Shown here one piece after another: positions 16,877 through 32,000 of a DNA stretch of 32,000 bases (position 1 is the stretch's first letter; the number at the start of each line of letters is the position of its first letter). Origin of the DNA: Faecalibaculum rodentium (GTDB lineage: Bacteria; Bacillota_I; Bacilli_A; Erysipelotrichales; Erysipelotrichaceae); the NCBI RefSeq assembly GCF_001564455.1, contig NZ_CP011391.1, positions 1,380,001 to 1,412,000 on the forward strand, given 5' to 3'. A program made the position numbers and the translations under genes. The notes beneath the pieces are model-generated. The model was given only the letters and a program-made list of their open reading frames with translations. It had not been told where the DNA came from and did not search any database.

Positions 16877-17533
16877 ATGTTAGAAGATACAGGAAGAAGG
16901 ATTAAAGAATTAAGAACCGAAAAAGGATGGACACTTGAGCAATTGGGCGATGCTGTTGGAGTCAATAAGAGCACCGTCCGAAAATGGGAAACTGGAATGA
17001 TCAAAAATATGCGCCGGGACAAACTGGCCATGATCGCCAAAGCCTTGTCAACCACTCCTGCTTACCTCATGGGCTGGCAAGAAGAGGGAGCCGGAGACCC
17101 TAAACGAGAACCCGGCAACATGCTGCCCCCTGAACGGTTGCAGATTCACCTGAATACCGTCCCAGTCTATGATCCGATTTCTTGTGGGACTGGAAAATGG
17201 GTTGATGAGCAGCCGGTGGACTATCTGGGCGTACCGGATACAATGGTTTCCAAAGCCTGTCATTACTTTGCAAATCCTGCTTTTGGTGATTCCATGGAGC
17301 CCCGAATACAGAACGGTGACTATGTCGTTTTTGAGCAGACCTCAACCATTGACCCAGGGTCCATTGGCGCGTTCAGTCTAAATGGGGAGTATTTCTGCAA
17401 GAGATTTAAAAAGCTCCCCGATGGGAGCATGTGGCTATTTTCTGAGAATCCAAGGTATGAACCTATACCGATACAGAAATACGATGACTTCCGTGTGCTT
17501 GGAAAGTACAGGATGCGAATGACAGAATATTAA
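16877..17533 (+). CDS. cI: CI-type prophage repressor (XRE HTH + S24 LexA-like peptidase)
   Basis: 218 aa. HTH is WTLEQLGDAVGVNKSTVRKWETG. The S24 domain has GDSMEP (Ser nucleophile) and FCKRF (Lys). Confidence 0.9.
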   Translation: MLEDTGRRIKELRTEKGWTLEQLGDAVGVNKSTVRKWETGMIKNMRRDKLAMIAKALSTTPAYLMGWQEEGAGDPKREPGNMLPPERLQIHLNTVPVYDPISCGTGKWVDEQPVDYLGVPDTMVSKACHYFANPAFGDSMEPRIQNGDYVVFEQTSTIDPGSIGAFSLNGEYFCKRFKKLPDGSMWLFSENPRYEPIPIQKYDDFRVLGKYRMRMTEY

Positions 17534-18440: not shown

Positions 18441-18830
18441 ATGAAAACAAAAACCTATTTAGCCGTTATGGAGCCCTGTGATTCAGGGTATGGCGTTTAC
18501 TTTCCTGATTTCCCAGGGTGTGTAGCATCCGGAAAAACCATTGATCAGGCCGCCCGTATTGCAAAAGACGCTCTCTCCATGCACTACTACGCTTTGGAAG
18601 AAGAAAGCGAAGAAATCCCGGAACCTTCTCAGTCTCTGAGCGCTGAGGACACAGCTGGTAATGTCGTTACCCCTATCACGATTTATCCGGAGCTACTGCA
18701 CGAAGAATACCGGAACCGCAGAGTTAAAACCAATACCACTATCCCCGCATGGCTTAAAGCTGCTGCGGAAGAAAAAGGAATCAATTTCAGCCGTGTTCTG
18801 GAAAATGCCTTGATGGGAATGATTAACTAA
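18441..18830 (+). CDS. hicB: HicB-family antitoxin (RNase-H-like fold + C-terminal RHH)
   Basis: YLAVMEP.DSGYGVYFPDFPGCVASGKTIDQA...A.DAL is the HicB N-domain. The C-terminal TTIPAWLKAAAEEKGINFSRVLENAL is RHH-like. Confidence 0.9.
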   Translation: MKTKTYLAVMEPCDSGYGVYFPDFPGCVASGKTIDQAARIAKDALSMHYYALEEESEEIPEPSQSLSAEDTAGNVVTPITIYPELLHEEYRNRRVKTNTTIPAWLKAAAEEKGINFSRVLENALMGMIN

Positions 18831-19249: not shown

Positions 19250-20383
19250 ATGCGATTTGATAAGCGAGAATCGAAGAAATCGAAGTCCGGCTACACATGG
19301 CGGGTCACTTTTGAATACAAGGACCGGTACGGGAAAAAGAAGAAGTACAGCAAGTCCGGCTTCGCGACCAAGAAGGCAGCGCAGGTACATGCCCTTGCAG
19401 TCCAGTCCGATCTGGCCAAAGGGCTGGTGGTGGACAACTCCGTTCATACAGTTGATGAGCTTTTCCAGCAGATGATCAAGCTGCCGGGATACTCCCCGAA
19501 CACGATCAGCCTGTATAGGGACAATTACAATAAACACATCCTGCCTGTTCTGGGAAACGCAGATATCAAAGATCTGCACTACCCAGAACTGCAGAGCTTT
19601 TTCACAGATATGTCGACTGTGGGAAAATCTGCCGTCGCAACTACCAAAACCGTACTGACCGGGATTGGGAATCTGGCTGTCAAATCCGGATACATCGCCA
19701 GCTGGCCAATCAATCTGGTACAGACCTCCGGCGTCAACAACAGCAGAAAGAAAGCCGGCAGCAGCGACTACCTTTCGGAGACAGATTTCAAATCGCTGTT
19801 GAATCTGGTATCACACGCGAAAGACGAGTTTACTTCCGGATCTAAAGGAGTGTTCCTGATGCTTGGTTACTATTTGGGACTGCGAATCGCAGAAGCCTGT
19901 GCTCTGACATGGGATGATGTGGATTTCCAGAGCCGGACAATCCGGATAAACAAGCAGCTGACCTACACCAGGCTAAAGGTCAAAGATTTCTATATTAGGG
20001 ATATGACGAAGACAGAAAAACCGAATGCCGTTTTACCTGTCCCTGAACCATTGATAGAATCCTTGAAGGAATGGAGAGACTACAACCCCTATCCCCTGAT
20101 TCTCTGTACAGAAGAGGGACGTTGGCTGCATCCGAGAAACACCGGTAATACAATCAGGACTGCAGCGCAAAAGCTTGGGTTTGATTTCCATCCGCATATG
20201 CTCCGGCACACTTACATCACGAATCTTGTGCTGGCCGGGACTGACTTGAAAACAGTTGCTGATTTGGCACGCCATGCATCAGCAGCAATGTCTCTGCAGG
20301 TCTATACAGAGACAACTGATTTAAGGAAAGCGGAGGCTATCGCAAGGGCTTTTGAAGACGAAATCCCGAACATTCTGGCGTAG
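19250..20383 (+). CDS. int: phage tyrosine integrase
   Basis: 377 aa. N-terminal arm-binding-like region (KSGYTWRVTFEYKD.YGK). The catalytic C-domain has ...GLRIAEACAL.W.DVD..., HMLRHTYITNLVLAG and the ...LQVYTE Tyr. Confidence 0.95.
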   Translation: MRFDKRESKKSKSGYTWRVTFEYKDRYGKKKKYSKSGFATKKAAQVHALAVQSDLAKGLVVDNSVHTVDELFQQMIKLPGYSPNTISLYRDNYNKHILPVLGNADIKDLHYPELQSFFTDMSTVGKSAVATTKTVLTGIGNLAVKSGYIASWPINLVQTSGVNNSRKKAGSSDYLSETDFKSLLNLVSHAKDEFTSGSKGVFLMLGYYLGLRIAEACALTWDDVDFQSRTIRINKQLTYTRLKVKDFYIRDMTKTEKPNAVLPVPEPLIESLKEWRDYNPYPLILCTEEGRWLHPRNTGNTIRTAAQKLGFDFHPHMLRHTYITNLVLAGTDLKTVADLARHASAAMSLQVYTETTDLRKAEAIARAFEDEIPNILA

Positions 20384-20462: not shown

Positions 20463-20489
20463 GACGGAAGAATTGACGAAGTGTATAAT
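20461..20489 (+). promoter_or_regulatory. promoter of the foldase operon
   Basis: TTGACG (20461-20466), 17-nt spacer, TATAAT (20484-20489). The -35 element overlaps the terminator T-run. Confidence 0.6.
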
Positions 20490-20519
20490 TTAACAGTTGA
20501 ACACACAAGGAGGACAACT

Positions 20520-21551
20520 ATGTCTGATTGGATCAGATCGAACTGGTTCGTGGTCGTGATCATTGTGGCCCTGGCAGGTGCCACCGGCTATTTTATTTAC
20601 GACGCAAACCGGAACAACGTCCCGGGCCGTCAGGCAGACGGCAAGGACGTGATTGCTTCCCTTGCAGAACGGGACATCACTGCCGATGAACTGTATGACC
20701 AGGGAGCGCCCTTTGACGGACAGCTGCTTTACAATCTGTATAAAAATGCCGTGGTTTCCCAGTCTGTGCAGACCACATCGGACCTGGAGAAGGAAGCGAA
20801 AGAAATGGAGAAAACCATTGACCAGAATGTCCGGGGACAGAGTTCGGATAAATACAAGGAAGCCATTTCCGCGGAACTGGCCTCCTATGGCTTTGCGAGC
20901 TATGATGACCTGTACGACTACTGTCTGGTCAACGTAAAGGAAAAGGAACTGGACCGCACCTATGTGGATGCGCACTTCGAGGAACTGAAGAAATCCCTCA
21001 AGGACAAGCAGCCGCGGACGGTATCCCAGATCAAGGTCACGGTTTCCAACCCCGAGTCGCTGACAGAGGACGAGCAGAAGAAAGTCGACAGCATTGACAA
21101 GGCACTGGAATCCGGCACCTTCGCAAATGCGGCCACTGCCTTCTCGGATGATACAGCCACAGCAGACAAGGAAGGCTTCGCGGGGTACATCGATGCGGAT
21201 GATGCAGCCCAGGGCAATGGAGTGGTGGCTGCGGAAGCCGTCAGCGCCGCGCTGTCCCTGAAAAAGGGCGAGACAACAGACTGGATCTCTGTGACAGATG
21301 CGTCCACAGGCGCCAAAAGCATGGTGAAGGTCACAGTGGATGAAGACAATGTGACTGCGATTCACGAGTCTGACAATGAAGACGTCCGGGATGAACTGCT
21401 GTATGCGCTGCTCGGCAGCGATACCGGTCTGTCCATGAAGATCATGCAGGAGGCGGCATCCAAACTGAAGATCACGTTCGAGGACGAACAGACACAGGCC
21501 CGTCTGGACAACTACATGAAGACAGCAGGAGATCAGGCAGATGCGGAATAA
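20520..21551 (+). CDS. membrane-anchored PrsA/SurA-like foldase with a degenerate parvulin domain
   Basis: AAGGAGG 6 nt upstream of ATG 20520 (the track start at 20481 lies in the promoter). N-terminal TM WFVVVIIVALAGATGYFIY, a SurA-N-like helical region, then a parvulin-like ...SQIKVTV...FANAATAFSDD..TADKEGFAGYI. Confidence 0.7.
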   Translation: MSDWIRSNWFVVVIIVALAGATGYFIYDANRNNVPGRQADGKDVIASLAERDITADELYDQGAPFDGQLLYNLYKNAVVSQSVQTTSDLEKEAKEMEKTIDQNVRGQSSDKYKEAISAELASYGFASYDDLYDYCLVNVKEKELDRTYVDAHFEELKKSLKDKQPRTVSQIKVTVSNPESLTEDEQKKVDSIDKALESGTFANAATAFSDDTATADKEGFAGYIDADDAAQGNGVVAAEAVSAALSLKKGETTDWISVTDASTGAKSMVKVTVDEDNVTAIHESDNEDVRDELLYALLGSDTGLSMKIMQEAASKLKITFEDEQTQARLDNYMKTAGDQADAE

Positions 21552-22452
21552 ATCATGGATCGCTGCGGGTGCAGCCGGCCTGCTGTTCCTGGCGGGGTGT
21601 TCCGGAGCCACGGCTTCCGTGTCCGATCCGGACAAAGAGCTGATGACCATCGGCGATGTCACATACACCCGCGGGCAGGAATATGAATACATCAAGAAAT
21701 CCACAGGCCCGAACCTGGTGATGCAGATGGCTGAAGAAGTCATTTACGACAAGGAAGTCCCGGTGACGGATGAGATCCGGAAACAGGCGGAGGACAATTA
21801 CAACGAATACGCCAAAACCTCGGACAATCTGGAAAGCTATATCCAGAGCATGGGATACAAGGACCGGCAGGATTATATTGACAAGGTGCTGATCCCTGCT
21901 GTCCAGGCGGAAAAACTGCTGACAAAGTGGTTCACCGATGCTCAGGAGGAAATCGTGCAGGAGTACAAGCCCTCCCGGGTGCAGATCATCCAGACGGATT
22001 CCAAGGATTCCGCCAACAAGGCGCTGCAGGCACTGAAGGACGGAAAGAGCGCGCAGGATGTGGCTGGTCAGTACCAGACGGAGGGCACAAGCTACAACGG
22101 GACGGCGACCATCGTCACTACGATGGATACTGTGCTTCCCACCCGTCTGATCAACACGCTGTCCAGTGCCGAGAGCAAAGCCGGTGTGGTGAACGAAGTG
22201 TTCGAGAGCGACGACAAGACGCAGTTCTTCGTGGCTGTGCTTGTCAGCAACAACTATGATGACATCAAGGGCGAGCTGGAGAGCACACTTAAGAATGACT
22301 CCACAGTCACGGAGAAATGTCTGGTGAGCTACCTGACCAAGTATGATTTCCGGGTGTTTGACCAGGACATCTTCGATTACCTCCGCGTCAATTATCCGCA
22401 GTATCTGGTGACCAGGCCGGATCTGATGGAAAGCGCGGACGCGGAAAGCTGA
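21541..22452 (+). CDS. PrsA-like foldase lipoprotein
   Basis: Signal peptide with lipobox LLFLAGC. PrsA-like N-domain and a degenerate parvulin-like segment. Overlaps the upstream stop. Confidence 0.7.
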   Translation: MRNKSWIAAGAAGLLFLAGCSGATASVSDPDKELMTIGDVTYTRGQEYEYIKKSTGPNLVMQMAEEVIYDKEVPVTDEIRKQAEDNYNEYAKTSDNLESYIQSMGYKDRQDYIDKVLIPAVQAEKLLTKWFTDAQEEIVQEYKPSRVQIIQTDSKDSANKALQALKDGKSAQDVAGQYQTEGTSYNGTATIVTTMDTVLPTRLINTLSSAESKAGVVNEVFESDDKTQFFVAVLVSNNYDDIKGELESTLKNDSTVTEKCLVSYLTKYDFRVFDQDIFDYLRVNYPQYLVTRPDLMESADAES

Positions 22453-22493: not shown

Positions 22494-22530
22494 AAAGACC
22501 GGTTCCGGATGTGGAATCGGTCTTTTCGTG
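22494..22530. terminator. bidirectional terminator between convergent genes
   Basis: Stem AGACCG (22496-22501) / CGGTCT (22518-22523). Followed by TTTTCG on the plus strand and TTTTCAT on the minus strand. Confidence 0.55.
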
Positions 22531-22598
22531 TGCCTGGGCTATATCGATACAGGCGGTCGGGCAGTCATCTAAGGATGCAGCGAATCAGCAGCCAGATG

Positions 22599-23631
22599 TC
22601 AGCGTTCCTGTTTGCGGATGAATGTGGACGTGATCTCATGATACATTTCGGGATATTTTTCCTTCAGCAGGTCGAGCCGGGATCTACGTCTGTCATTTTC
22701 GTTTTTGAGGCCGTCGTTCTCGGATTTGAATCCATAAATCTTCTCGATAGATACATCCCGTTCCGCCTTCATCTGGTGGTATTCCCGCTTCATCTTCGGA
22801 TCCGGCCAGACGACCTGGGCTTCATTGCAGTCATTCAGCTGATCTATGGTGTGGGCTGTTGCTGGAACTCCCTCCTTCTCCAGGTATCGAATCTGCTTTT
22901 CCGGTTCGATGGACTCTCTGAAAAAATGACTGAGGCACTGAATGGCTCCGTCTCCCGATTCATCCCGGTCATTTCCGATTGCGAACACCTTGATCCGTAT
23001 AAAACCATCCATGACATGACACAGATTCTGTCCTGCATTTCCTGTATCACTGTCAGTAAAAACCATTTCAGCGCGGCTTCTGCAGTCAATAATAAAACTG
23101 TGTTCCATGAGCGGCATGATCCTCAAGGCAAGAATCGGTTTCGCATTCCGGTATTCATCTCCGGAACAACCACTGACATCATTTTTCTGCGATGTCAGCA
23201 ATACACCGATGCAGTAAAAGAACCGTCCTGCCAGATGCCTGGATCCTGGATTCGTGTTCTGCCTCTCGACATCGATCAGAAGTACATTCGGATCGGCTGT
23301 TTCACAGACATACAGAACCAGTGAATCAGACTTGCCGTGGCTTTTTCTGTTTCAGCCAGCTGGTCCTTCAGACATTCGCTCACACCCCCAGTATCTGCTG
23401 CCATCGATTTCCTGAAGCGGCATGCTATATCCTTCAGACTGCCCGAAAACAGGTCCGGTACAGTTTTCTTCAGATTCAGCGCACACAGATATGGCAAAGA
23501 CAGGATTTCCTTTGCGCTCTGTCGTATCTTGCCTTTGCTTCCTCCGGGGAGATGACAGCCGTGAGTTCTTCGCTGATGGCCCTATGGCCATGTGGGATTC
23601 CATCCTTCCTGTCTTTTCTGTTTTTGTCCAT
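22599..23631 (-). pseudogene. apparently frameshifted gene of unknown function (three frame segments)
   Basis: Strong RBS AAGAAAGGAGAAGG-ATG at 23631. Frame a runs 23631->23476 (51 codons), frame b 23497->23276, and frame c is open 23351->22599 with no start codon before TTG 23201. Consecutive segments overlap, so two single-nt indels would join them into ~340 aa. A-runs lie in both overlap zones. Confidence 0.4.
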
Positions 23632-23700
23632 CCTTCTCCTTTCTTTCCAGACCGCCCGATTTTATCTGGACTCTTTCTTTCCTTCCCGGTTTTACCGGGC

Positions 23701-23730
23701 ATTTTCAAAACACCCGGATGCAACCGGGTG
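23701..23730 (-). terminator. intrinsic terminator ending the T7SS operon
   Basis: On the minus strand: CACCCGG-TTGCAT-CCGGGTG followed by TTTTGAAAA. A second small hairpin CCCGGTAAAACCGGG follows. Confidence 0.7.
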
Positions 23731-23795
23731 TGAAAGATGAAGAACTGGTTTATCTCTGTTCCCGTTCAAGTCATGCAGACTGCCGGGAAAAGTTT

Positions 23796-24074
23796 TTATT
23801 CGTGCAGGGTATCGTACTGTTCTTCCAGCACACGACGGAAGCCGAATTCCTCCTGATCCTGCATGCCCACATACCAGAGCAGATCGATATCGTCATGATT
23901 GAAGAGATACAGCCGGTCACTGCGGATCATGCCTTCCGGCCAGAGGACGCCCGCGTAGTCATACAGGATGTCATCTCCTCCCCGCTGGATCCGCCCGACG
24001 GTCATGAGCTTCTTGGACCCTTCTTTCAGGGTCACGACGCTGCCAAGCGGCAGCCATTCCGGTGTCTGTTTCAT
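23796..24074 (-). CDS. DUF4176-family protein (T7SSb-associated)
   Basis: 92 aa with RBS AAAGGAAA. WLPLGSVVTLKEGSKKLMTVGR......YDYAGVLWPEG.I.SD.LYLFNHDDI matches the DUF4176 consensus as I recall it. Confidence 0.8.
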   Translation of the reverse strand: MKQTPEWLPLGSVVTLKEGSKKLMTVGRIQRGGDDILYDYAGVLWPEGMIRSDRLYLFNHDDIDLLWYVGMQDQEEFGFRRVLEEQYDTLHE

Positions 24075-24185
24075 GTTGTTTCCTTTCTTGTTGTTGCTTG
24101 TTGCCTTTCTGAATTGATTCGATTCACTCTGACCGGTCCGGATGATTCAGGTCCAGGGGATGGCCAGTCACAAATACGAGTGCCA

Positions 24186-24992
24186 TCAATAGCGGACATT
24201 CACCTTGAATCCGGTGCCCGCAATGAAGCCAAGCTTGCTGCCAAACTCCCACTCCCGGTTCATGTGCCGATAGGAGAGGCCGGCTTCACAGCTGCCAACC
24301 GAGCCTTCTCCTGTAATGGTCACCGTACAGCCCAGAAGAGAGAACGCCAGGGAACATTCTCCCCGGAACGCCGCAGCTCCCACAGATGCTTCCAGTGTCT
24401 GTTCGTCTTTGGACAGCACTGCCTCGGCTTTCGCATAGACAGCCCCGGTCTCACCCCTGACCCGCAAAGACCCGGACATACCTGTTCCCGAAAACACCCT
24501 GTAGTTTCCCGTCACACAGGCAGCACTCATGGATGCCTCTGCCTGGATCCTGGCTTCGGGACTGAATCTCTTCTTTTTGTCCCAGAGCTTCAATCCCACA
24601 CTGCCCGAGGCCTGTGTATCAAATACCCGGACATCGGTATCGAATCTGTGATGCGCTCCACTGTGCGTGAACCGGGCTGCAGCCAGAGACGTGGAGACGG
24701 TTCCGCTGAAGGTGGTCGTGACCGGCTTCTTTTTCAGCTGCTGTCCCAGGTTCCATACCTCTGTGTGACTGACCTGCATCGTTCCGGGTTTCCAGACCGA
24801 AGTAACGGAAGCCAGAGCCGTCTCCGTCTGCTCCGCCTGCGTGGCGGCTGTCTCAAACCAGAGAGCCAGCCGGTTCAGGCTGTTCTGGACCTCCAGGTGT
24901 GTGCCATACGCTGCACTGCTTCTGTACCCCCAGGACTGAAGACCCCGAAGACTTGCCGAATACCCCTTCAGGGCATCAGTGTCGGTCCTCAT
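24186..24992 (-). CDS. candidate T7SS substrate/effector: helical N-terminus + beta-rich Gly/Ala/Ser C-domain
   Basis: 268 aa. The N-terminal ~75 aa are predicted helical. The remainder has alternating-pattern segments (ARIQAEASMSAACVTG, GAVYAKAEAVLS, ECSLAFSLLGCTVTITGEGSVGSCEAGLSY) and ends GFKVNVRY. No family recognised. Confidence 0.6.
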   Translation of the reverse strand: MRTDTDALKGYSASLRGLQSWGYRSSAAYGTHLEVQNSLNRLALWFETAATQAEQTETALASVTSVWKPGTMQVSHTEVWNLGQQLKKKPVTTTFSGTVSTSLAAARFTHSGAHHRFDTDVRVFDTQASGSVGLKLWDKKKRFSPEARIQAEASMSAACVTGNYRVFSGTGMSGSLRVRGETGAVYAKAEAVLSKDEQTLEASVGAAAFRGECSLAFSLLGCTVTITGEGSVGSCEAGLSYRHMNREWEFGSKLGFIAGTGFKVNVRY

Positions 24993-25152
24993 CCTGTTTC
25001 AGGGCAGCCAGGATCACTCTTGCCTGAGACTGCATCAGACTGAGGCGGCTGCACACCTGCTGACGCTCCTGTGCACTCAGGCAGGCAGGAATGCTGTGCT
25101 TCATGGATTGAAGACGGCCAATCAGGTTCTGATAGTAGACCTGTTCCCTCAT
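24976..25152 (-). CDS. 58-aa helical protein (possible effector-targeting/chaperone factor)
   Basis: ATGA overlap with the upstream stop (25149-25152). Sequence MREQVYYQNLIGRLQSMKHSIPACLSAQERQQVCSRLSLMQSQARVILAALKQDEDRH. Below the track cutoff. Overlaps the next start by 17 nt. Confidence 0.55.
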   Translation of the reverse strand: MREQVYYQNLIGRLQSMKHSIPACLSAQERQQVCSRLSLMQSQARVILAALKQDEDRH

Positions 25153-25433
25153 GAGGCCATGCCGGCAGCAAGGATCTGCTCGGTTTCCTGATAGGATGCG
25201 GCTGTCTGGTCCAGATAGATTGTGAAGGCTTCGGTCACTTCACAATAGTTTTCATACAGGGGAACCAGCGTCTCGTATTCGCTCGCGAATGCCCGGCTGG
25301 CCGGTGAACTCCATTCACCTTCCATAGCCCGGATCCGGCCGGTCACTGCCGCAAACAGGGCACGCATGTCATTGAGCTGGGATTTCATCGTGGCGGATCT
25401 GGCCGCCAGTTCCTGACTGGAAATCCGGATCAT
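25149..25433 (-). CDS. WXG100-like helical hairpin protein (degenerate WXG)
   Basis: 94 aa with an ATGA overlap to the upstream gene. Central MEGEWSSPAS replaces W-x-G. C-terminal ...AASYQETEQ. Confidence 0.65.
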   Translation of the reverse strand: MIRISSQELAARSATMKSQLNDMRALFAAVTGRIRAMEGEWSSPASRAFASEYETLVPLYENYCEVTEAFTIYLDQTAASYQETEQILAAGMAS

Positions 25434-25723
25434 AACAGCCTCGCAGCCTGTGCGGCTCTGTCCTGCTGCAACTGACGATAGATCTGTGCTGTGCGGATCA
25501 ATGTATCACCATACTGCGACATGATTTCAGTCAGACGGATCAGGTGCGGCTGCAGGCTCCGTGCCTGCGACAGGAAGGTCTGGCAGTCTTCGCCCTGCCA
25601 GATTTCCGCCGTCTGTTCCATGGTTGCAGCCAGCTGCCGGATACGGCTCCGGCAGTCCTGTGCCTGCTGCTGAAGGTTTTGTCCTTCCTGAAGAATGTGG
25701 TCATAGTTGGCCTGTATGTGCAT
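25430..25723 (-). CDS. esxA: WXG100 family protein (EsxA-like)
   Basis: Start at ATG 25723 (AGAAAGGAAAA 7-8 nt upstream), 97 aa. Central AEIWQGED supplies W-x-G. Helix-turn-helix layout. Confidence 0.8.
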   Translation of the reverse strand: MHIQANYDHILQEGQNLQQQAQDCRSRIRQLAATMEQTAEIWQGEDCQTFLSQARSLQPHLIRLTEIMSQYGDTLIRTAQIYRQLQQDRAAQAARLL

Positions 25724-25768
25724 AATCAGTTTTCCTTTCTCGTGAATCATTGACGCAATGCCGGCCCT

Positions 25769-25972
25769 TCAGGCCAGCAGCGCAAGAAGATGTGTCCCAA
25801 ACGGACATTCCAGCAGCCCGGACGGCAGTGAAGGATCCAGCACCTGCCTTGTCACGGGATCCATCAGCCAGAGAATCCCCAGATCTGCCGGAGCGGTTTC
25901 CGGAGAGAGCCAGAGCTGCAGCGTGTCTCCTGTCAGGACATCCGTGATGTTCAGCAGCCAGTCACTGTGCAT
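25769..25972 (-). CDS. possible YukD/EsaB-like ubiquitin-fold protein, 67 aa
   Basis: Fills the only gap in the operon, is co-directional, and its start overlaps the essC stop by 11 nt. Loose resemblance to YukD (ITDV..G.TLQLWLS... and ...LLECPFGTHLLAL). No clear SD, and the GC-rich context makes chance ORFs likely. Confidence 0.4.
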   Translation of the reverse strand: MHSDWLLNITDVLTGDTLQLWLSPETAPADLGILWLMDPVTRQVLDPSLPSGLLECPFGTHLLALLA

Positions 25973-28900
25973 GGATCAGCGGTATGAGGCCCTGGCATAC
26001 GGATTTCTTCTGCAGGATCCATGGTTCCGGCACAGAAGGCAGGCCCAGTGTCCAGGCCCTGGGTTTCCAGCCACCTGTATACAGTCTGCTGCAGGGTGCT
26101 GTATGATCTTCCGGTTCCACCAGCGGCTTTGGCCAGTCAGGACGCCACTGACAGAGCCTGGCTGCCACCACCATGGCCTCATTGCCATAGACAGCGAGCG
26201 GTTCGCCATCCCAGAACACCGGCTCTCCCTGATGCAGGCCGAGCACAGGCTGAGTGAAAACCGCAGCCCAGTCCTGCGGCTGGTCAAAATCCGGCAGGAC
26301 CATATCATCCTGCGGATCCAGCCGGTCCTGAAAATGAAGTGGCAGCCCGTCTGGTTCAAGGCGGCCTGTCGGGAATGGCACATCGTTCCGGAATCCCCCG
26401 AACAGGCTCAGACTGGCGGCACTGCCGGTCACAATGGTCTGATCCGGCGAAACAGTCAGTCTGTCAGGCCTGGTCTGGATCAGGATCAGACGCACATCGG
26501 GATGGATCCATAATGCCGGGTCTTCATCCAGCAGGACCACTGTCCGCTCCCCCTGCAGATGCAGGGCAAACCAGGCAGTACCGGCAGTTGGCAGGACCAT
26601 GCCCGGATAGACAGTCTGCAGAACGGTCAGGACCTGATCCCGGTTTTCCGGTGCCAGGATCCGGGTGAAACTGCCGAGAGGCGGATCCAGGATCCAGAGT
26701 CTGGCTGCGTACGCATCCAGCACCTGCGCGAGTCCCGGCCCATCAAACGACCCGGGCATTCCGGGGAGCAGGAGATCGCAGCATTCCCGGCCTTTGGCAG
26801 CGAGTTCCAGGGTTTCTTCCATCCAGGTCCTGACTGGCAGCTGCCGCAGGATTTGGCCATCTGCTTTTTGCAGACAGCCGCCGGCGCTGACAGGCCGTCT
26901 GGCATAGAGTGCCTGAAACCGCATCGGTCCAAACCAGCCATCTCCTGCCCCTTTCAGGTCCGCGGCCCGGCCATCATGCAGCACTTCCTGGCTTTCAAAC
27001 CGGTCTCTTACCTTGAAACACAGCACATAACCCGTATTTGCCAGGATCTGGGCATCCACGATTCCCTGCGGACGCTGAGTGGACAGAAGGAGACAGATGC
27101 CCAGAGACCGTCCGACCCTGGCCAGGGACTGAAGAAAGTCCATCTGCATAGGATACTGTTCCCGGATCTGCGCAAATTCATCTGCGACCACCAGCAGAAG
27201 CGGGATCGGGTTTTCCGGACAGAACCGGTTCAGGGTGACAAAATCCGGTGTCTGCGCCGGGTACAGAGTCTGGAAGTCATGCATGCGCTGCTCCCTGCGT
27301 TTCAGTTCCCCTTCCAGGGCCAGCTGCAGGGCGTCCATCCCGGTTTCATCCAGATCCGTCATGATGCCTGCACAATGCGGCAGTCCGGAAAAGGGAGCCG
27401 CAAAGGAACCACCCTTGAAGTCCAGGATCACAAACCGGAACCAGGCTGGGTCGTTTTCCTTCATCAGCTGCGTCAGAAGCGTGGCCATGGCTTCCGATTT
27501 CCCGCTTCCCGTGGTTCCTGCGACCAGGCCGTGGGGCCCGTCTGCCAGCAAGTCCAGGAAGACTGGCTGCTGCTGTTGATTCGTGCCGATCTGAACCCGG
27601 TAGCAGGGACCGGTCCCGACTTTGGAAAGTGGTCTTGTCTGAGGTCGGGGAGGACAGAACCGGAGGCTGTTCAGGTTTGTCAGAGTCACCGACAACCCCG
27701 TATCTTCCCGGATATCCAGTCCATAGACCGCCATGCCCGGCAGCTTTCCTGTGACCCGGCTGTGGTCATGCCACAAATGAGGATATTCTCCGGCCACCGG
27801 CTGCAGCCCGCCCCACTTTACCCGTGCCGGATCCTGGCTCCAGATGGTCATCGCAAACAGGGCTTCCGGATTTCCCGATACAGGTGCTTCCATGTCCTCG
27901 TACCGCAGAGTCCGGACAGGAATGGCTGCTTCTTCCAGAACAGCTTTCACAAAGGCAAAGAGGGGGTGACGACGGTGCTGCCAGCTGAATGATGATTCCC
28001 GGATTTCAACCGGCAGCCCGGTCTCGGTCCATCCGCAGGGAACCGGAAGTCCGCTTTGAAACAGGACGGGATCAAGGTTTGACCAGAGCTCAGCGAGCTT
28101 CTCCTGCTGTTTTGTGATTTGCTCCCGCAGCTGTCTGAACTGCATCTGCAGGCCGCATAGATACTGGCGGTAAGCCTCCAGTCTGCCGTCTGCTTCTGCC
28201 TGCTGCTGTTTCCAGGTCATGCGGCGGGAAATCAGGCCATAGACCAGGAAGCTGCCGGCCATGCTCAGCGACATCACAAGACTTGTCCTGACGGTATCTG
28301 CGGTTCCGGCTTGTGTGACCTGGAGCAGGGCTGCCGACAGCAGGGATCCGGCACACATCAGCAGGCTTGACCCGCAGGACAGAAACAGGCTCTGGGGCTT
28401 CACCGGTTCCTGCAGTGTCCAGCTCTCCAGTGTCTCCTGCAAAGGGTCCGGCATCACTGTCCAGCCGGGAAGGGATTTCCAGGACTGTGTCCTGTCCGGC
28501 TGTCGTGCAGCGTTGACAGGAATGGCGGATACCGGCGGTCCATGCTGGCGAAAGCTGCACAGAAAGAAGGACCCCACCCATAACAGGCTGCAGCGTGCAC
28601 ACTGGATGCGGTCCAGGAAATGCAGCGTTTCGCGCCGGATCCTGCGTCCGTTGACGTAGGTTCCATTCATGGAGTCCAGGTCTTCCAGCACATAGTTCCC
28701 GCCCTGCCGCGTGATGCGGAAGTGTTCGATGGATACAGCCGGATCGGGTGTTTCCATGAGCTGCCGTCCAAAGACAAATCCGTCATGTGCCAGCAGAAGG
28801 CTCAGGTCATCAGGACCAGGACGGGCTCTGGCGTAATACACCGTGTCGCCGGCAATCCGGGCATGATTCAGCGGGACTTGTATGGACCGATGGTCATCCT

Positions 28901-28979
28901 CCATGACCACAGCCCCGTTTCTTTCCGGCAGCTCCAGGCTGGAAAAGCGGTTTTCGGTAAAGCACAGCAGCTCAGCCAT
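25962..28979 (-). CDS. essC: EssC/YukB-like FtsK-SpoIIIE T7SS ATPase, short form (1005 aa)
   Basis: N-terminal FHA region (...ITRQGGNYVLEDLDSMNGTYVNGRRI), two TM segments, and one canonical P-loop domain (GTTGSGKSE; Walker B LLLVVADEF; STQRP). A ~290-aa C-terminal region has no Walker A. Confidence 0.85.
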   Translation of the reverse strand: MAELLCFTENRFSSLELPERNGAVVMEDDHRSIQVPLNHARIAGDTVYYARARPGPDDLSLLLAHDGFVFGRQLMETPDPAVSIEHFRITRQGGNYVLEDLDSMNGTYVNGRRIRRETLHFLDRIQCARCSLLWVGSFFLCSFRQHGPPVSAIPVNAARQPDRTQSWKSLPGWTVMPDPLQETLESWTLQEPVKPQSLFLSCGSSLLMCAGSLLSAALLQVTQAGTADTVRTSLVMSLSMAGSFLVYGLISRRMTWKQQQAEADGRLEAYRQYLCGLQMQFRQLREQITKQQEKLAELWSNLDPVLFQSGLPVPCGWTETGLPVEIRESSFSWQHRRHPLFAFVKAVLEEAAIPVRTLRYEDMEAPVSGNPEALFAMTIWSQDPARVKWGGLQPVAGEYPHLWHDHSRVTGKLPGMAVYGLDIREDTGLSVTLTNLNSLRFCPPRPQTRPLSKVGTGPCYRVQIGTNQQQQPVFLDLLADGPHGLVAGTTGSGKSEAMATLLTQLMKENDPAWFRFVILDFKGGSFAAPFSGLPHCAGIMTDLDETGMDALQLALEGELKRREQRMHDFQTLYPAQTPDFVTLNRFCPENPIPLLLVVADEFAQIREQYPMQMDFLQSLARVGRSLGICLLLSTQRPQGIVDAQILANTGYVLCFKVRDRFESQEVLHDGRAADLKGAGDGWFGPMRFQALYARRPVSAGGCLQKADGQILRQLPVRTWMEETLELAAKGRECCDLLLPGMPGSFDGPGLAQVLDAYAARLWILDPPLGSFTRILAPENRDQVLTVLQTVYPGMVLPTAGTAWFALHLQGERTVVLLDEDPALWIHPDVRLILIQTRPDRLTVSPDQTIVTGSAASLSLFGGFRNDVPFPTGRLEPDGLPLHFQDRLDPQDDMVLPDFDQPQDWAAVFTQPVLGLHQGEPVFWDGEPLAVYGNEAMVVAARLCQWRPDWPKPLVEPEDHTAPCSRLYTGGWKPRAWTLGLPSVPEPWILQKKSVCQGLIPLIHAQ

Positions 28980-30414
28980 GGTGTCTTCTCTTCAGCCAGA
29001 GTACAGGGGCCAGCAGTATGGGCCACAGACTGAACCAGTTCATGGACTGACTGCTGCCAATCTGGTGTTCCAGCAGAGTGCCGGTCGAAGTCAGGGCCCG
29101 GACTTCCCGCACGGTTCTTCCCCTGGGCACTTCGAGCAGGGTGTTTCCCTGTTCATCCTTCTGCACCGGAATGGGTTCTCCATCCACCTGGGCTGACAGA
29201 ATGCTCTGTTCGGGGGGCAGGCGAAGCTGCACGGTATCCGCAGTTTCCTGCACTGAAAAGCGTACCGGCGGGGTTCTGGTTTCCAGGATCCGGAGTCCTT
29301 CTTCCTGGTCCCAGTCAAAGAGAAGACCGCCGGATTTCACCAGGTGACCAGAAGACTCTGCTTTGAGGCTCTCTGCAGACTGTTCCGGTCCCTGGCGTTC
29401 CCGGTTCTTTTCCCGGGCAATGACCAGACCGGTCTGTACTGTGATGTCAACCCCGGTTTCGATCTGACTGGCCGATGCTGGCTGTGTCAGGTCTGTACCG
29501 GGTGTCCCGGGCTGAATCAGTGTCTCTCCGGCTCCAGCAGGGATGGGCTCCGGTACAGGAGTCGGGGCTGTCAGGATGGGCCGGAGTTTCTCTTCCATGG
29601 ATCCAGACGCAGAAACTGCGGGATCCTGAAGCCCGGTGCCCGTGACAGTACCGGATACGGGAGCAGATCCTTCCGGTGCCCGGGATTCTCCTGATCCGGA
29701 CTCTTCCGTCTTCGGTAATTCAGAGGGTTTTGCCGACGGAAAGAGCAGAGCCGGCGTCTGAATGCAGCCAGTCGGCTTCTCCTGCACAGACCCAGCTGGT
29801 TTCTTGTCCGGATCCTTGTCGGCAGGTTTTTCTCCCGGACATTCCGGCTGGCTGTCATCGGATGCGCCTGGCGCAGGATCAGCACAGCCCTGTCCTGCGG
29901 AGTCCACAATCTTGTCCGCAGCATCCGGATCTGTCTTATCTTCTCCGTCTTTGCTCTCTGTATCCGTCGCAGGATCGTCACTGCTGTCCGGATCCTCCGT
30001 AAGGCCGGGACTGATTTCAGGATGTGTGCCGTCTGCCGCTGTCTGATAGCCCGATTCTCCTGAACCCGGCTGGCTGTCGTGTTCCCCGACACCCTGGGTT
30101 TCCGCTGTCTCTTCGGCTGCTGCCACCGGTTCCGGCAGTTCCCGTTCCCCGCCTGAACCGATGCCTGCATCCTGATCCATATCTGTTTCGGTCTCCGGTC
30201 CTGCACCTGGATTCAGGTCTTCTTTCTGCGAAGATCCATCCGGTTTTGAATTTTCCGGGATTCTGCTGTCACTGGCCTCCATCTGTCGCAAAAGTCCTTC
30301 CGGCGTCCTGATCCAGACCCGGCGGGATGGCTGTGTCAGGATCCCGGGATCCTTCATGGTGCAGATCTCGCAGATCGTGCCGGCATCTACCGGCGGCTGT
30401 ATATGTTCAGTCAT
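28972..30414 (-). CDS. acidic, Pro/Ser/Thr-rich low-complexity protein with a folded C-domain and C-terminal TM anchor
   Basis: 480 aa with 8-nt overlaps at both ends. About 300 aa are D/E/P/S/T/G-rich. The region ~340-455 is beta-like. The terminal segment WFSLWPILLAPVLWLKRRHHG is hydrophobic. Confidence 0.75.
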   Translation of the reverse strand: MTEHIQPPVDAGTICEICTMKDPGILTQPSRRVWIRTPEGLLRQMEASDSRIPENSKPDGSSQKEDLNPGAGPETETDMDQDAGIGSGGERELPEPVAAAEETAETQGVGEHDSQPGSGESGYQTAADGTHPEISPGLTEDPDSSDDPATDTESKDGEDKTDPDAADKIVDSAGQGCADPAPGASDDSQPECPGEKPADKDPDKKPAGSVQEKPTGCIQTPALLFPSAKPSELPKTEESGSGESRAPEGSAPVSGTVTGTGLQDPAVSASGSMEEKLRPILTAPTPVPEPIPAGAGETLIQPGTPGTDLTQPASASQIETGVDITVQTGLVIAREKNRERQGPEQSAESLKAESSGHLVKSGGLLFDWDQEEGLRILETRTPPVRFSVQETADTVQLRLPPEQSILSAQVDGEPIPVQKDEQGNTLLEVPRGRTVREVRALTSTGTLLEHQIGSSQSMNWFSLWPILLAPVLWLKRRHHG

Positions 30415-31393
30415 TCACTGTCTCCTTCCATTCCATCAGCTGTGACACATCAGACCCGAACCGGTCTTTCCACTCCGCCGGCAGGGTCATGTCACAGCCT
30501 TCTGTCTTCATTCGCAGAGCGTATGCCGCAACACACAGCGCATCCTGCTCTGTCCGGACTTTCCGGCACACCTGTTCCAGCACCCCTGCCTCCAGCGGTT
30601 CGTCCAGGTCCTGCAGAACCTGCAGTCGTTCACTTAGCGGACGGCTGTCATCCAGGAGCACCTGACGGACGAGATCCGTTTCGTGCATCTGAGACCCGGG
30701 CAGCTGCAGAACCGGAACACAAAGTCCGGCCGCGAAGACAGACACTGTGATCATCCAGATCAGAACACTGCCCGGGATCTTTCCAGAATGCAGGGGATCC
30801 CTCCGTCGCCCTGGGTCCAGTTGCAGGCACCGGCGTCGCTGCAGGGGATACAGATGCCAGCGTCTGGCCAGCATCCCCCAGGCCCAGGCATCCGCTGCCG
30901 TGGTTTTCGGACAGTCACCGGCCAGTTCCGGTGCCATGCTGTCCAGTGTGGCGAAAAAGCACTGACGGCTGCCGGCCTCCAGCACGCCGTCATAATCAAT
31001 GAGCACCACCCTGTCATCGCACAGAAACAGGTGGTCTTCCTTCAGGTCGAGATAGAGGTAGCCCAGCTGATGGATCCTTTCCAGAATGCGGGCCGCTTCC
31101 TGTAGGACCCGCCGTTTCTGCGCCCTGCTCAGCCCGCCGGCGGGTGTTCCCTGGATGTATTCCTCCACCAGGACACGCTCCGTCTCCGTTTCCCGGCACT
31201 CATACAGGCACGGTGCATTCCTGCCCTTGAGCTTCAGTAGCAGATCCGCCTCCCTGGCAGACTGACGGCAGGCCAGGATATCGCTTTTTCGGGCCCGCCG
31301 CAGGATGACAAGCCTGCCGGTCTCTTCATCCCGTGCAAGTTCCGTGCAGCACAGATTGCATCCAAGGACTTTCAGACGCCTGTAGCGGTTCAC
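30407..31393 (-). CDS. EssB/YukC-like membrane protein with a kinase-like (probable pseudokinase) N-domain
   Basis: 328 aa with a GTG start in a GTGA overlap. Hanks-like landmarks are Y..LKVLGCNLCC (degenerate G-loop), LVILRR (Lys->Arg), YLYLDLKEDHLFL (HRDLKxxN -> YLDLKxxH), LIDYDG (DFG -> DYD) and MAPE. TM segment VLIWMITVSVFAAGLCVPVL, then a ~100-aa C-domain. Confidence 0.7.
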   Translation of the reverse strand: MNRYRRLKVLGCNLCCTELARDEETGRLVILRRARKSDILACRQSAREADLLLKLKGRNAPCLYECRETETERVLVEEYIQGTPAGGLSRAQKRRVLQEAARILERIHQLGYLYLDLKEDHLFLCDDRVVLIDYDGVLEAGSRQCFFATLDSMAPELAGDCPKTTAADAWAWGMLARRWHLYPLQRRRCLQLDPGRRRDPLHSGKIPGSVLIWMITVSVFAAGLCVPVLQLPGSQMHETDLVRQVLLDDSRPLSERLQVLQDLDEPLEAGVLEQVCRKVRTEQDALCVAAYALRMKTEGCDMTLPAEWKDRFGSDVSQLMEWKETVND

Positions 31394-32000
31394 TGTATGA
31401 ACTGCAGGATATGCGCCCCCAGCCGGAGTTCCATGCCATTGCGGAGCCGCATTTTTCGCCTCACCTGTTTCTCCCCGAGCCAGGTCCCGTTTGCGGATCT
31501 CAGGTCCTGGATATAGAACCGTCCCTGATCCGCTGTGATCCTGGCATGCAGCGCAGATACGCTGTCATCCAGGACCCGGATGTCGGCCTGCATCCCCCGG
31601 CCCACGGTCATGGTTTCAAACGGCAGTTCATACCGGCTGTCGCCATCCACCAGACAGGCGGCAGCTTCCGGCACCGGCGCCAGGATCTGGGTGGCCTGTG
31701 TGAATGCCGGATTTCCGCCGCTTTCTGCCCACCTGTCACCCGGGTCCGGCTTCTCAGATCCAGGGATCGGCAGTGGCGGCATCAGTGCATCGTATTCGAT
31801 CACCGGCAGGATCACCTCTTCACGTGTCCGGAAGGGTTCTCTCGGCTTCGGGGGCAGAAAGGGAAACCGGCGGGGATGGTAGGTCCGTTCCAGTTCCCGC
31901 AGTCCCTGGATCACTGTCGGCAAAGAGAACTGGTCACTGCTCTGTGCCATCTGGAGCCAGCCGGGAATTTCGTAATCCGTCGATGTCCGAAAGGCCGAGC
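31390..32000 (-). CDS. FHA-domain protein (possibly 5'-truncated by the window edge)
   Basis: C-terminal FHA is TVGRGMQADIRVLDDSVSALHARI....GRFYIQDLRSANGTWLGEKQV. The frame stays open from ATG 31950 to position 32000, so the true start may lie outside the window. Confidence 0.75.
   Translation of the reverse strand, partial: SAFRTSTDYEIPGWLQMAQSSDQFSLPTVIQGLRELERTYHPRRFPFLPPKPREPFRTREEVILPVIEYDALMPPLPIPGSEKPDPGDRWAESGGNPAFTQATQILAPVPEAAACLVDGDSRYELPFETMTVGRGMQADIRVLDDSVSALHARITADQGRFYIQDLRSANGTWLGEKQVRRKMRLRNGMELRLGAHILQFIQ

Follow-up and report, generated by a model that had tools for sequence, protein, structure and literature searches.

A probable family-specific type VII secretion locus with a short, predicted D3-less ATPase in Faecalibaculum rodentium and other Erysipelotrichaceae

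Results

We analysed 32,000 nucleotides of the Faecalibaculum rodentium chromosome (contig NZ_CP011391.1, positions 1,380,001 to 1,412,000 of the forward strand; hereafter the window), in which one minus-strand operon of ten genes occupies positions 23796-32000 and encodes proteins related to type VII secretion systems (T7SS). All ten open reading frames (ORFs) were recovered at the coordinates given in Table 1. As read from these coordinates, seven of the nine junctions overlap by 4-17 nucleotides: 4 between the FHA and kinase genes, 8 between the kinase gene and the gene of the 480-amino-acid protein, 8 between the latter and the ATPase gene, 11 between the ATPase gene and the 67-codon ORF, 4 between the two WXG100 genes, 4 between the second of these and the 58-codon ORF, and 17 between the 58-codon and 268-codon ORFs. 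The junctions with a gap are those between the 67-codon ORF and the first WXG100 gene and between the 268-codon ORF and the DUF4176 gene. A preliminary description of this DNA had read the region as a single minus-strand operon with overlaps at nearly every junction and as richer in guanine and cytosine (GC) than its neighbours, and both points hold; the GC content is 58.9% in 23796-32000, compared to 48-49% in the remainder of the window and 52-53% in the native flanks. The 480-, 67-, 58- and 268-amino-acid products have no family match in Pfam or NCBIfam. The same description had placed a terminator after the DUF4176 gene. About 65 nucleotides past the stop codon of this gene lies a GC-rich, terminator-like hairpin with a TTTTG run, but it fails the stricter rule of a consensus scan that needs five T in eight bases and that returned no terminator in the window. 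Rfam and tRNA scans of the window were empty.

Table 1. The operon and its terminator-like hairpin in order of transcription (window coordinates; aa, amino acids)
Feature	Position	Strand	Evidence
FHA protein, operon gene 1; DUF6382-like + FHA (TsxJ-like), cytoplasmic	31390-32000 (3' part only)	-	FHA (Pfam)
Hanks-type kinase-domain protein (TsxD-like), 328 aa, single-pass membrane	30407-31393	-	Pkinase
Variable protein, 480 aa, acidic, Pro/Gly-rich, mostly low-complexity	28972-30414	-	Conserved C-terminal part
EssC/EccC-type membrane ATPase (TsxC-like), 1005 aa	25962-28979	-	FHA and one FtsK_SpoIIIE
Acidic protein, 67 aa, probably ubiquitin-like (YukD/EsaB/TsxB-type)	25769-25972	-	Profile alignment with ubiquitin
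WXG100 protein A1, 97 aa	25430-25723	-	WXG100 (Pfam), W-x-G motif
WXG100 protein A2, 94 aa	25149-25433	-	WXG100 (Pfam), W-[ST]-S-P and YxxxE
Basic protein, 58 aa, probably helical	24976-25152	-	Conservation; coupled translationally on both sides
Protein of 268 aa, helical hairpin and beta strands	24186-24992	-	AlphaFold2 model
DUF4176 protein, 92 aa, Ltc family of T7SS toxin chaperones	23796-24074	-	PF13780
Terminator-like hairpin, CACCCGG-ttgcat-CCGGGTG then TTTTG	23712-23731	-	Sequence and inverted repeat

Taking one genome per species, we searched for the locus with an alignment of the 268-amino-acid protein family and scanned the six-frame ORFs of the loci found with hidden Markov models (HMMs). 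This gave 45 species-representative loci, all of Erysipelotrichaceae apart from a few evidently mis-binned metagenome-assembled genomes (MAGs), in the genera Faecalibaculum, Faecalicoccus, Faecalitalea, Floccifex, Holdemanella, Absicoccus, Catenisphaera, Merdibacter and Dubosiella. The order of Table 1, from the FHA gene to the DUF4176 gene, is conserved over the 45 loci with a reduced set in Merdibacter, and Absicoccus porci, Holdemanella and lineage L010 (L numbers denote loci of the survey) have the same ten genes in identical order and orientation. The same pair of PrsA-like genes and the suf operon flank the cluster in most genera. In Absicoccus and Holdemanella, the cluster does not differ in GC content from its flanks, and its position is fixed; the cluster is therefore ancestral to the family and not a recent import. 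Recent horizontal acquisition, to which the GC excess might point, was considered for the F. rodentium locus and is rejected on the grounds of the synteny and the host-matched GC content in the other genera. In Merdibacter (L044-L052) the reduced cluster has no kinase or variable protein, the FHA gene lies directly upstream of the ATPase gene, and the ATPase frame is longer (1176-1279 codons, stop to stop). Three bins labelled Segatella copri, Waltera intestinalis and Bacteroidaceae (L021, L023 and L036) also carry the cluster, most likely through bin contamination or mislabelling.

The ATPase (WP_067557428.1) is annotated only as "FHA domain-containing protein". As shown by Pfam, it contains an FHA domain and a single FtsK_SpoIIIE domain, and its best NCBIfam matches are TIGR03928 and TIGR03924, of which the first, the EssC model, covers only residues 461-682 and reaches 201 bits where its cut-off is 778. 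The AlphaFold2 model has two N-terminal beta domains, two transmembrane helices, a long stalk, a pre-D1 region and a confident D1, and a Foldseek search with this model returned EccC (4nh0) as the top match (E = 3e-19), together with FtsK, EssC and the Bacillus subtilis T7b core unit (9qks). These results bear out the preliminary reading as a short EssC-like ATPase, with the domain order of two FHA-like beta domains, two transmembrane helices and a stalk helix, pre-D1, a predicted active D1 and a degenerate D2. EssC proteins of 1500 or more amino acids align to about 22% of the query, corresponding to D1, at about 40% identity, and the end-to-end relatives form a small family of 961-1130 amino acids; over the loci, the short ATPases measure 961-1280 amino acids. 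In an exhaustive profile search of 1.84 billion cluster representatives, about 56 short ATPases were among the best 150 matches, 53 of them with one strict Walker A motif, and all 47 distinct orthologues have exactly one. The Walker A sequence GTTGSGKSE, the Walker B sequence DEFAQ and the arginine-finger region are invariant in the short ATPases, as are the phosphothreonine-binding residues of the FHA domain (G71, R72, S83, H86, N105 and G106).

The short family is collinear with long EssC proteins up to alignment column 1365 of 1547, which is the end of D2 (E = 7e-121). When the C-terminal 310 residues were compared as a 43-sequence alignment by hhalign, they matched EssC D2 (91.7% probability, P = 7.7e-7) with the P-loop deleted, and matched neither D1 nor D3. 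A smaller C-terminal profile of 11 sequences gave nothing against long EssC proteins by hmmsearch and a weak match by hhalign (P = 0.012). Since the AlphaFold2 model leaves residues 734-908 unresolved, the D2 assignment rests on profile comparison and not on structure. No second FtsK-like gene was found within 10 kb in any of the 45 loci. Together, these comparisons show an ATPase with a D1 predicted to be catalytically intact, a D2 without its P-loop, and no D3. Our set also contains EssC-like proteins of a second class (P0346-P0432), 1300-1420 amino acids long, in which the only strict Walker A lies near residue 650; some of these proteins match the short-family profile in one stretch, and the class may be intermediate between the full-length and short ATPases.

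Upstream of the ATPase, the 328-residue protein matches Pkinase in Pfam (E = 5e-13), its profile resembles kinases of the StkP/PknB type in the PDB (E about 1e-17), and it has one transmembrane segment (residues 210-228). It had been described as a kinase-like membrane protein of EssB type. The kinase domain and the membrane topology stand, but the EssB assignment does not: there is no match to YukC in Pfam (PF10140), and no EssB or YukC is among the 60 best of 2,040 PDB matches of the kinase profile, all of them eukaryotic-type kinases. The catalytic aspartate, the aspartate of the DFG motif and the glutamate of helix alpha-C are invariant over 35 orthologues, and none of the 35 has a Gly-rich loop. 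The beta-3 lysine is kept in 33 of them and replaced by arginine only in the two Faecalibaculum species, which additionally carry an N-to-H change and DYD in place of DFN. Given these replacements and the missing Gly-rich loop, the F. rodentium protein looks like a pseudokinase in the making and, judged by its residues, probably is a pseudokinase. The lysine change and the DYD motif are confined to the Faecalibaculum lineage, and the N-to-H change of the catalytic loop also occurs in L010 and L041. In Faecalibaculum and L010, the kinase ectodomain is shortened (325-334 amino acids compared to 400-470) and the variable protein has no signal peptide and no immunoglobulin (Ig)-like region, which suggests that the extracytoplasmic parts have been reduced in particular lineages.

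The window end truncates the first gene. Its full product has 341 and not 186 amino acids (8979-10004 of L001, on identical contigs), with the start codon and a conserved N-terminal domain beyond the window end; thus the free-standing FHA protein proposed earlier is confirmed in its domain (Pfam, E = 4.7e-17) but not in its extent. Its residues for phosphothreonine binding (GR, SxxH and SxNGT) are invariant in four genera. DUF6382 is the top Pfam match of the N-terminal domain in seven of ten orthologues, the F. rodentium protein itself not among them, at E = 1.5e-5 to 0.06 and below the gathering score (25.2 bits at best, cut-off 26.7). DUF6382 joined to FHA is the architecture of TsxJ in T7SSe, T7SSf and T7SSj (PMC11217815).

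Both small proteins encoded after the 67-codon ORF belong to the WXG100 family, as had been noticed from their sequences; both are above the Pfam gathering score, and their profiles match EsxA and EsxB structures. For A1 (E = 2.7e-8), the start is most likely the ATG at 25723 (97 amino acids), as in the orthologues, and not 25750 (106 amino acids). Its WQG/WTG motif is conserved in four genera, and its profile matches the EsxA structures 3zbh and 2vs0. A2 (E = 2.1e-10; ESAT6_2, 52 bits) carries W-[ST]-S-P instead of WxG and a conserved C-terminal Y-x-x-x-E in the form of SYQETEQ, SYQENEQ, TYQENEE or AYEQTEQ. The gene of the 67-residue protein lies immediately downstream of the ATPase gene in nearly all loci. 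Over its whole length, a profile built from 24 orthologues aligns with ubiquitin (2mlb) at a borderline E = 0.0099, which supports in part the YukD-like ORF suggested before, but the protein has no Pfam YukD match, and a profile of four sequences was uninformative. We tentatively assign it as a probable ubiquitin-like component of the YukD/EsaB/TsxB type, on the strength of this alignment. The 58-residue protein is conserved in four genera (invariant Y6, Y7, L10, L14, E29, Q43 and H58) and is encoded at the same position in most of the 45 loci, and it is a candidate small partner of the 268-residue protein.

The AlphaFold2 model of the 268-residue protein (mean predicted local distance difference test, pLDDT, 84.5) is confidently folded but for short linkers. 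It has an N-terminal helical hairpin (residues 5-64) followed by seven antiparallel strands of 20-25 residues each (92-267), in agreement with the preliminary label of a beta-rich protein. No significant match to this fold was found in the PDB (best Foldseek E = 7e-3, TM-score < 0.26), and the weak matches are MACPF proteins in the pore state and outer-membrane barrels. Of the residues in the beta region, 44% are glycine, alanine, serine or threonine, and its final strand is strongly amphipathic. The protein has no signal peptide and no transmembrane segment. Its family comprises 39 clusters among 5.8 billion, all from Erysipelotrichaceae, with lengths of 256-278 amino acids and two partial entries of 223 and 237; because the family is so narrow and constant in length, the protein is not a polymorphic toxin. 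The last product of the operon matches PF13780 (E = 7e-25, 87 bits against a gathering score of 25), its profile matches the solved DUF4176 structure 9dcs (E = 9e-15), and the orthologues in four genera are 49-61% identical. The DUF4176 or Ltc family has been shown by experiment to contain chaperones of T7SSb toxins, and the 92-residue product falls in its small class of 70-130 amino acids; in the described Ltc systems (PMC12478183) the cognate toxin is of LXG type, its middle domain is disordered, and Lap partners and an immunity gene are encoded nearby, whereas this locus has no LXG match and no immunity-like gene.

The 480-residue protein is acidic (pI 4.4, 17% aspartate and glutamate) and rich in proline (10.6%), and it ends in a conserved domain of about 110 residues, a terminal hydrophobic segment and a basic tail (WFSLWPILLAPVLWLKRRHHG). 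Its orthologues range from 283 to 627 amino acids, and only the C-terminal part aligns; searches with a whole-protein profile and with Pfam gave nothing usable. In Faecalicoccus, Faecalitalea and other orthologues there is an N-terminal Sec-type signal peptide and a clear C-terminal transmembrane helix, in some genera with an AxDxxGN motif, which implies an extracytoplasmic protein. The orthologues of Faecalibaculum, Holdemanella and Absicoccus have no convincing signal peptide, and those of Holdemanella and Absicoccus end in an amphipathic basic helix in place of the transmembrane helix. The earlier label of an acidic, low-complexity, tail-anchored protein is correct in its first two terms, and its last term appears doubtful in view of the Sec signal peptide predicted in several genera. 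The combination of signal peptide and C-terminal anchor in some genera is reminiscent of TsdI and TseI. Since the profile comparison with TsdI of Olsenella uli was not significant (hhalign P = 0.67), we treat the protein as an analogue of TsdI and TseI only.

We next compare the locus with the described systems. Canonical T7SSb gene order had been denied to this locus, with its substrates downstream of the ATPase gene and with neither EsaA nor EssA, and all of this is borne out: the gene order is the same in the 45 loci, and neither Pfam nor NCBIfam gave a match to EsaA or to EssA (PF10661 and TIGR03927) in the ten operon proteins, in the window or in the 9 kb upstream. The sequence upstream of position 32000, to which the preliminary description had pointed as a check, contains the rest of the FHA gene. 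There is no protein of EsaA-like length or topology within 10 kb, and no PP2C/PPM phosphatase, TsxH or TsxK among the operon and flanking products. As in T7SSb of Staphylococcus aureus and B. subtilis, the ATPase is of EssC type, begins with FHA-like domains and has two transmembrane helices. The two also have in common a WXG100 substrate, a small protein that here is probably ubiquitin-like, a DUF4176-family chaperone, and a single-pass membrane protein with a cytoplasmic kinase fold that in F. rodentium is probably a pseudokinase, as is EssB. In contrast to T7SSb, this kinase-fold protein is not of the YukC/EssB family and shares the topology alone, the phosphothreonine-binding residues of the FHA domains are kept where EssC has lost them, the WXG100 proteins form a heterologous pair, the ATPase has no D3 (which is required in S. 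aureus), and the locus contains neither an LXG toxin gene nor immunity genes. The locus is therefore a T7SS but not T7SSb, having no EsaA, no EssA, no EssB/YukC and no three-domain EssC.

Garrett, Higginson and Palmer (2024, Microlife 5:uqae013) defined the subtypes T7SSc to T7SSj; every TsxC in their survey has four NTPase domains and 1293-1572 amino acids, and their Table S1 shows the FHA motifs GR, SxxH and NG retained in TsxC alongside a kinase component (PMC11217815). The same three motifs are kept in the ATPase described here, which resembles T7SSe, T7SSj and T7SSd in this respect and in the presence of the kinase component. The parts list is closest to that of T7SSe of Bacillota, which likewise has two non-identical WXG100 proteins, a small ubiquitin-like protein (probable here), a single-pass membrane Ser/Thr kinase-domain protein, a cytoplasmic protein with DUF6382 (DUF6382-like here) and FHA, and a C-terminally anchored protein encoded between the kinase and the ATPase. 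However, the T7SSe ATPase has 1572 amino acids, compared to about 1000-1280 here with no D3 and no P-loop in D2, and T7SSe includes the PPM phosphatase TseF as well as TseH and TseK, none of which is present at this locus. Unlike TseI, the anchored protein here is small (283-627 amino acids), has no demonstrable homology to TseI or TsdI and has no signal peptide in several genera. The kinase differs from that of T7SSe in having no Gly-rich loop and DFN instead of DFG, and the 58-codon, 268-codon and DUF4176 genes are conserved extras.

T7SSd of O. uli (Actinomycetota, L056) also encodes a kinase, membrane protein(s), and then a WXG100 protein and an FHA-bearing ATPase. Our kinase profile matches TsdD (7.7e-14), the A2 profile matches TsdA (4.5e-15), and the ATPase D1 domains are about 43% identical. 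T7SSd of O. uli differs in its phylum, in having a single WXG100 protein and neither a ubiquitin-like nor a separate FHA protein, and in its 1654-residue TsdI with Ig repeats and full-length ATPase of 1516 amino acids. A stand-alone gene for a 287-residue FtsK_SpoIIIE-domain protein lies about 6 kb downstream of tsdC (L056, 20792-21655); T7SS loci can thus have separate FtsK-like ATPases of a single domain nearby. A truncated membrane subunit is also known from ESX-1, in which the membrane polypeptide of the split EccCa1/EccCb1 pair ends before the last ATPase domains and the adjacent gene supplies D2-D3; here, in contrast, D2 is kept in degenerate form. A further locus of the survey, from a Lachnospiraceae MAG (L057, EssC protein P0012), encodes a full-length FHA-bearing EssC of 1534 amino acids with five WXG100 genes in tandem after it. 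No Pfam family is recorded for the neighbouring products, none of which matches EsaA, EssA or EssB, and the locus may represent another non-canonical T7SS arrangement. Literature searches found no description of the F. rodentium architecture in these genera. The F. rodentium locus thus belongs to the kinase/FHA-associated T7SS group, closest in parts list to T7SSe, and fits none of T7SSe, T7SSd and T7SSj. Judged by these searches and by the 2024 survey, the exact architecture is new, above all the ATPase without D3.

Upstream of the operon, beyond the window, lie the rest of the FHA gene, a divergent gene for a 156-residue membrane protein, two unannotated genes and a major facilitator superfamily transporter gene. 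The divergent protein (156-181 amino acids, four transmembrane segments; 8418-8888 of L001, minus strand in locus orientation) adjoins the FHA gene, has a conserved W[LI]NDLHVW motif and matches no family. It is present in nearly all 45 loci, including those of Merdibacter, whose other neighbours differ, and it may be an eleventh component of the system.

On the other side, two PrsA-like lipoprotein genes (356/343 and 303 codons; 20481-22452, plus strand) are tail to tail with the operon. An LAGC lipobox is present in the 303-residue product, and the larger product matches rotamase weakly. In most genera, though not in Merdibacter or Dubosiella, the two genes occupy this position, and their proximity could reflect a functional link, for example in the folding of exported cargo, or plain synteny. 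In Absicoccus and Holdemanella a PrsA-like gene directly follows the DUF4176 gene, and in L010 two acetyltransferase genes lie between. Between the terminator-like hairpin and the PrsA-like genes, F. rodentium has a specific segment of about 1.2 kb (22500-23750), with a minus-strand ORF without family match (200 amino acids in the ORF list of the window; 169, again on this strand, on other contigs) and a plus-strand Cys/Arg-rich ORF of 182 amino acids that looks spurious. The PrsA-like genes separate the operon from a prophage (1 to about 20400), which occupies the site where other genera have the suf operon beside the PrsA genes. The prophage encodes RusA (3124-3531), a primase (3921-6221), a helicase (6215-7702), Sak4 (8227-9309), a CI-like S24 repressor (16877-17533), a HicB-like antitoxin (18441-18830) and an integrase (19250-20383).

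Discussion

We propose that the locus encodes a T7SS apparatus of an Erysipelotrichaceae-specific subtype, inherited vertically at a fixed chromosomal site, and we put the probability of this reading at about 0.75. The invariant D1 and FHA motifs of the ATPase, the conserved motifs of the WXG100 pair and the conservation of the chaperone and the 268-residue protein point to purifying selection on a working export pathway.

The mechanism that we propose for such a pathway is as follows. The kinase-domain and FHA proteins would control the assembly or activity of the ATPase through contacts between phosphothreonine and FHA domains, a logic that has been proposed for T7SSd, T7SSe and T7SSj (PMC11217815). 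In F. rodentium, the kinase-domain protein may act as a scaffold, as EssB does in T7SSb, and phosphorylation may come from another kinase or may no longer be needed. WxG and YxxxD/E are known to form the export signal jointly in T7SSa heterodimers. In the system described here, an A1-A2 heterodimer would carry a split signal of this kind, with WxG on A1 and YxxxE on the C-terminal tail of A2, and would be exported by translocation driven by D1. In EccC, D3 binds the substrate signal, and in EssC variants it sets effector specificity. Because D3 is missing here, substrates would have to dock on the degenerate D2 or on D1. The 268-residue protein would be a dedicated, non-polymorphic cargo, stabilised in the cytoplasm by the DUF4176 chaperone, perhaps with the help of the 58-residue helix, and exported through its N-terminal helical hairpin, and its amphipathic beta region rich in glycine, alanine, serine and threonine may act on a membrane or the cell envelope. 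A more specific version, in which a working T7SS with one nucleotide site and no D3 uses the degenerate D2 and phospho-FHA contacts to recognise and gate its substrates, and in which the 268-residue cargo is a T7SS substrate of a new kind that forms a beta pore or envelope conduit and is not an enzyme toxin, is tentative, and we think it more probably wrong than right.

Several points weigh against a family-specific secretion apparatus. In S. aureus, an engineered EssC without D3 fails to support secretion, and intact D2 Walker motifs are needed for assembly of the complex (PMC9436818); therefore, an ATPase that has neither D3 nor a D2 P-loop might be inactive or might need a partner encoded elsewhere. 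Such a partner could be a separate D3-like ATPase gene elsewhere in the genome, by analogy with ESX-1 and its split EccCa/EccCb. In the ATPase model, pLDDT is below 50 over the C-terminal 270 residues, the kinase of F. rodentium has no catalytic lysine, and the ubiquitin alignment of the 67-residue protein is borderline. No product of the locus matches LXG, the 268-residue protein has no detectable homologue among known T7SS substrates, and no immunity gene is apparent, the next genes being PrsA-like. The 268-residue protein is accordingly put forward as a candidate conserved secreted substrate from its position and its chaperone neighbour, and secretion is predicted for the members of the group.

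The described-subtype explanation, that the locus is a member of T7SSe, T7SSj or T7SSd and that the differences are minor lineage noise, accounts for the paired WXG100 proteins, the probable TsxB, the TsxC with FHA motifs, the membrane kinase and the DUF6382-FHA protein, which are common in these systems (PMC11217815), and for the matches of the kinase and WXG100 HMMs to TsdD and TsdA. We consider it improbable. The ATPases here (961-1280 amino acids, no D3) fall below the length range and the four NTPase domains of the surveyed TsxC proteins, the locus has no PPM phosphatase, TsxH or TsxK, homology between the variable protein and TsdI is undetectable, and three extra conserved genes are present. 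In addition, the supplements of the survey that were consulted contain no Erysipelotrichaceae names or accessions, and neither they nor the survey text contain the D3-less architecture (PMC11217815). It follows from the existence of this survey that the preliminary claim of an undescribed or poorly described T7SS was only partly right: the locus is of T7SS type and its exact architecture is new, but the broader class of loci with kinase, FHA and paired WXG100 components was published in 2024 (PMC11217815).

It is less probable still that the locus is a decayed or repurposed remnant that does not secrete, for example a membrane signalling or envelope module built of the FHA, kinase and ATPase parts. 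In its favour, the ATPase has lost D3 and the P-loop of D2, and engineered changes equivalent to these prevent secretion in S. aureus (PMC9436818); the kinase motifs are degraded in Faecalibaculum, where the variable protein has also lost its signal peptide and Ig-like region, and Merdibacter has lost both of these proteins altogether. Against this reading, the ORFs are intact and in the same order across 45 species loci (without kinase and variable protein in Merdibacter), Walker A, Walker B and the arginine-finger region of D1 and the binding residues of the FHA domain are invariant, the WXG100 pair retains WxG and YxxxE, and conservation within the cluster is highest in the DUF4176 chaperone and the 268-residue protein. 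An FtsK/TraB-type DNA translocase, or a conjugation or cell-division module, that does not secrete protein and has small helical proteins beside it by chance is very improbable: the sole ATPase domain is of the FtsK/SpoIIIE/HerA superfamily and gives weak matches to TraB, TraD and TcpA, but EssC/EccC models and structures are by far the best matches, the layout of FHA, transmembrane helices, stalk and pre-D1 is collinear with EssC over about 1000 columns, WXG100 and DUF4176 are families specific to T7SS, and the operon holds no relaxase, replication or mobility genes and stays at one chromosomal position.

If the locus does encode a secretion apparatus of this subtype, it bears on current models of T7SS, which give central roles to the C-terminal ATPase domains, and a family without D3 and with a single P-loop is a natural test of them. 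Since at least 45 species keep an ordered T7SS cluster with such an ATPase, they can reveal which domains are truly needed and where substrates dock. The apparent change from kinase to pseudokinase within one family, between Faecalibaculum and the other genera, bears on the origin of EssB in T7SSb. F. rodentium, Dubosiella newyorkensis, Holdemanella biformis and Faecalicoccus are common commensals of the mouse or human gut that are studied for their effects on the host. If it is secreted, the conserved beta-rich protein, which lacks an immunity gene, would become a candidate for a role in interactions with the host or the envelope.

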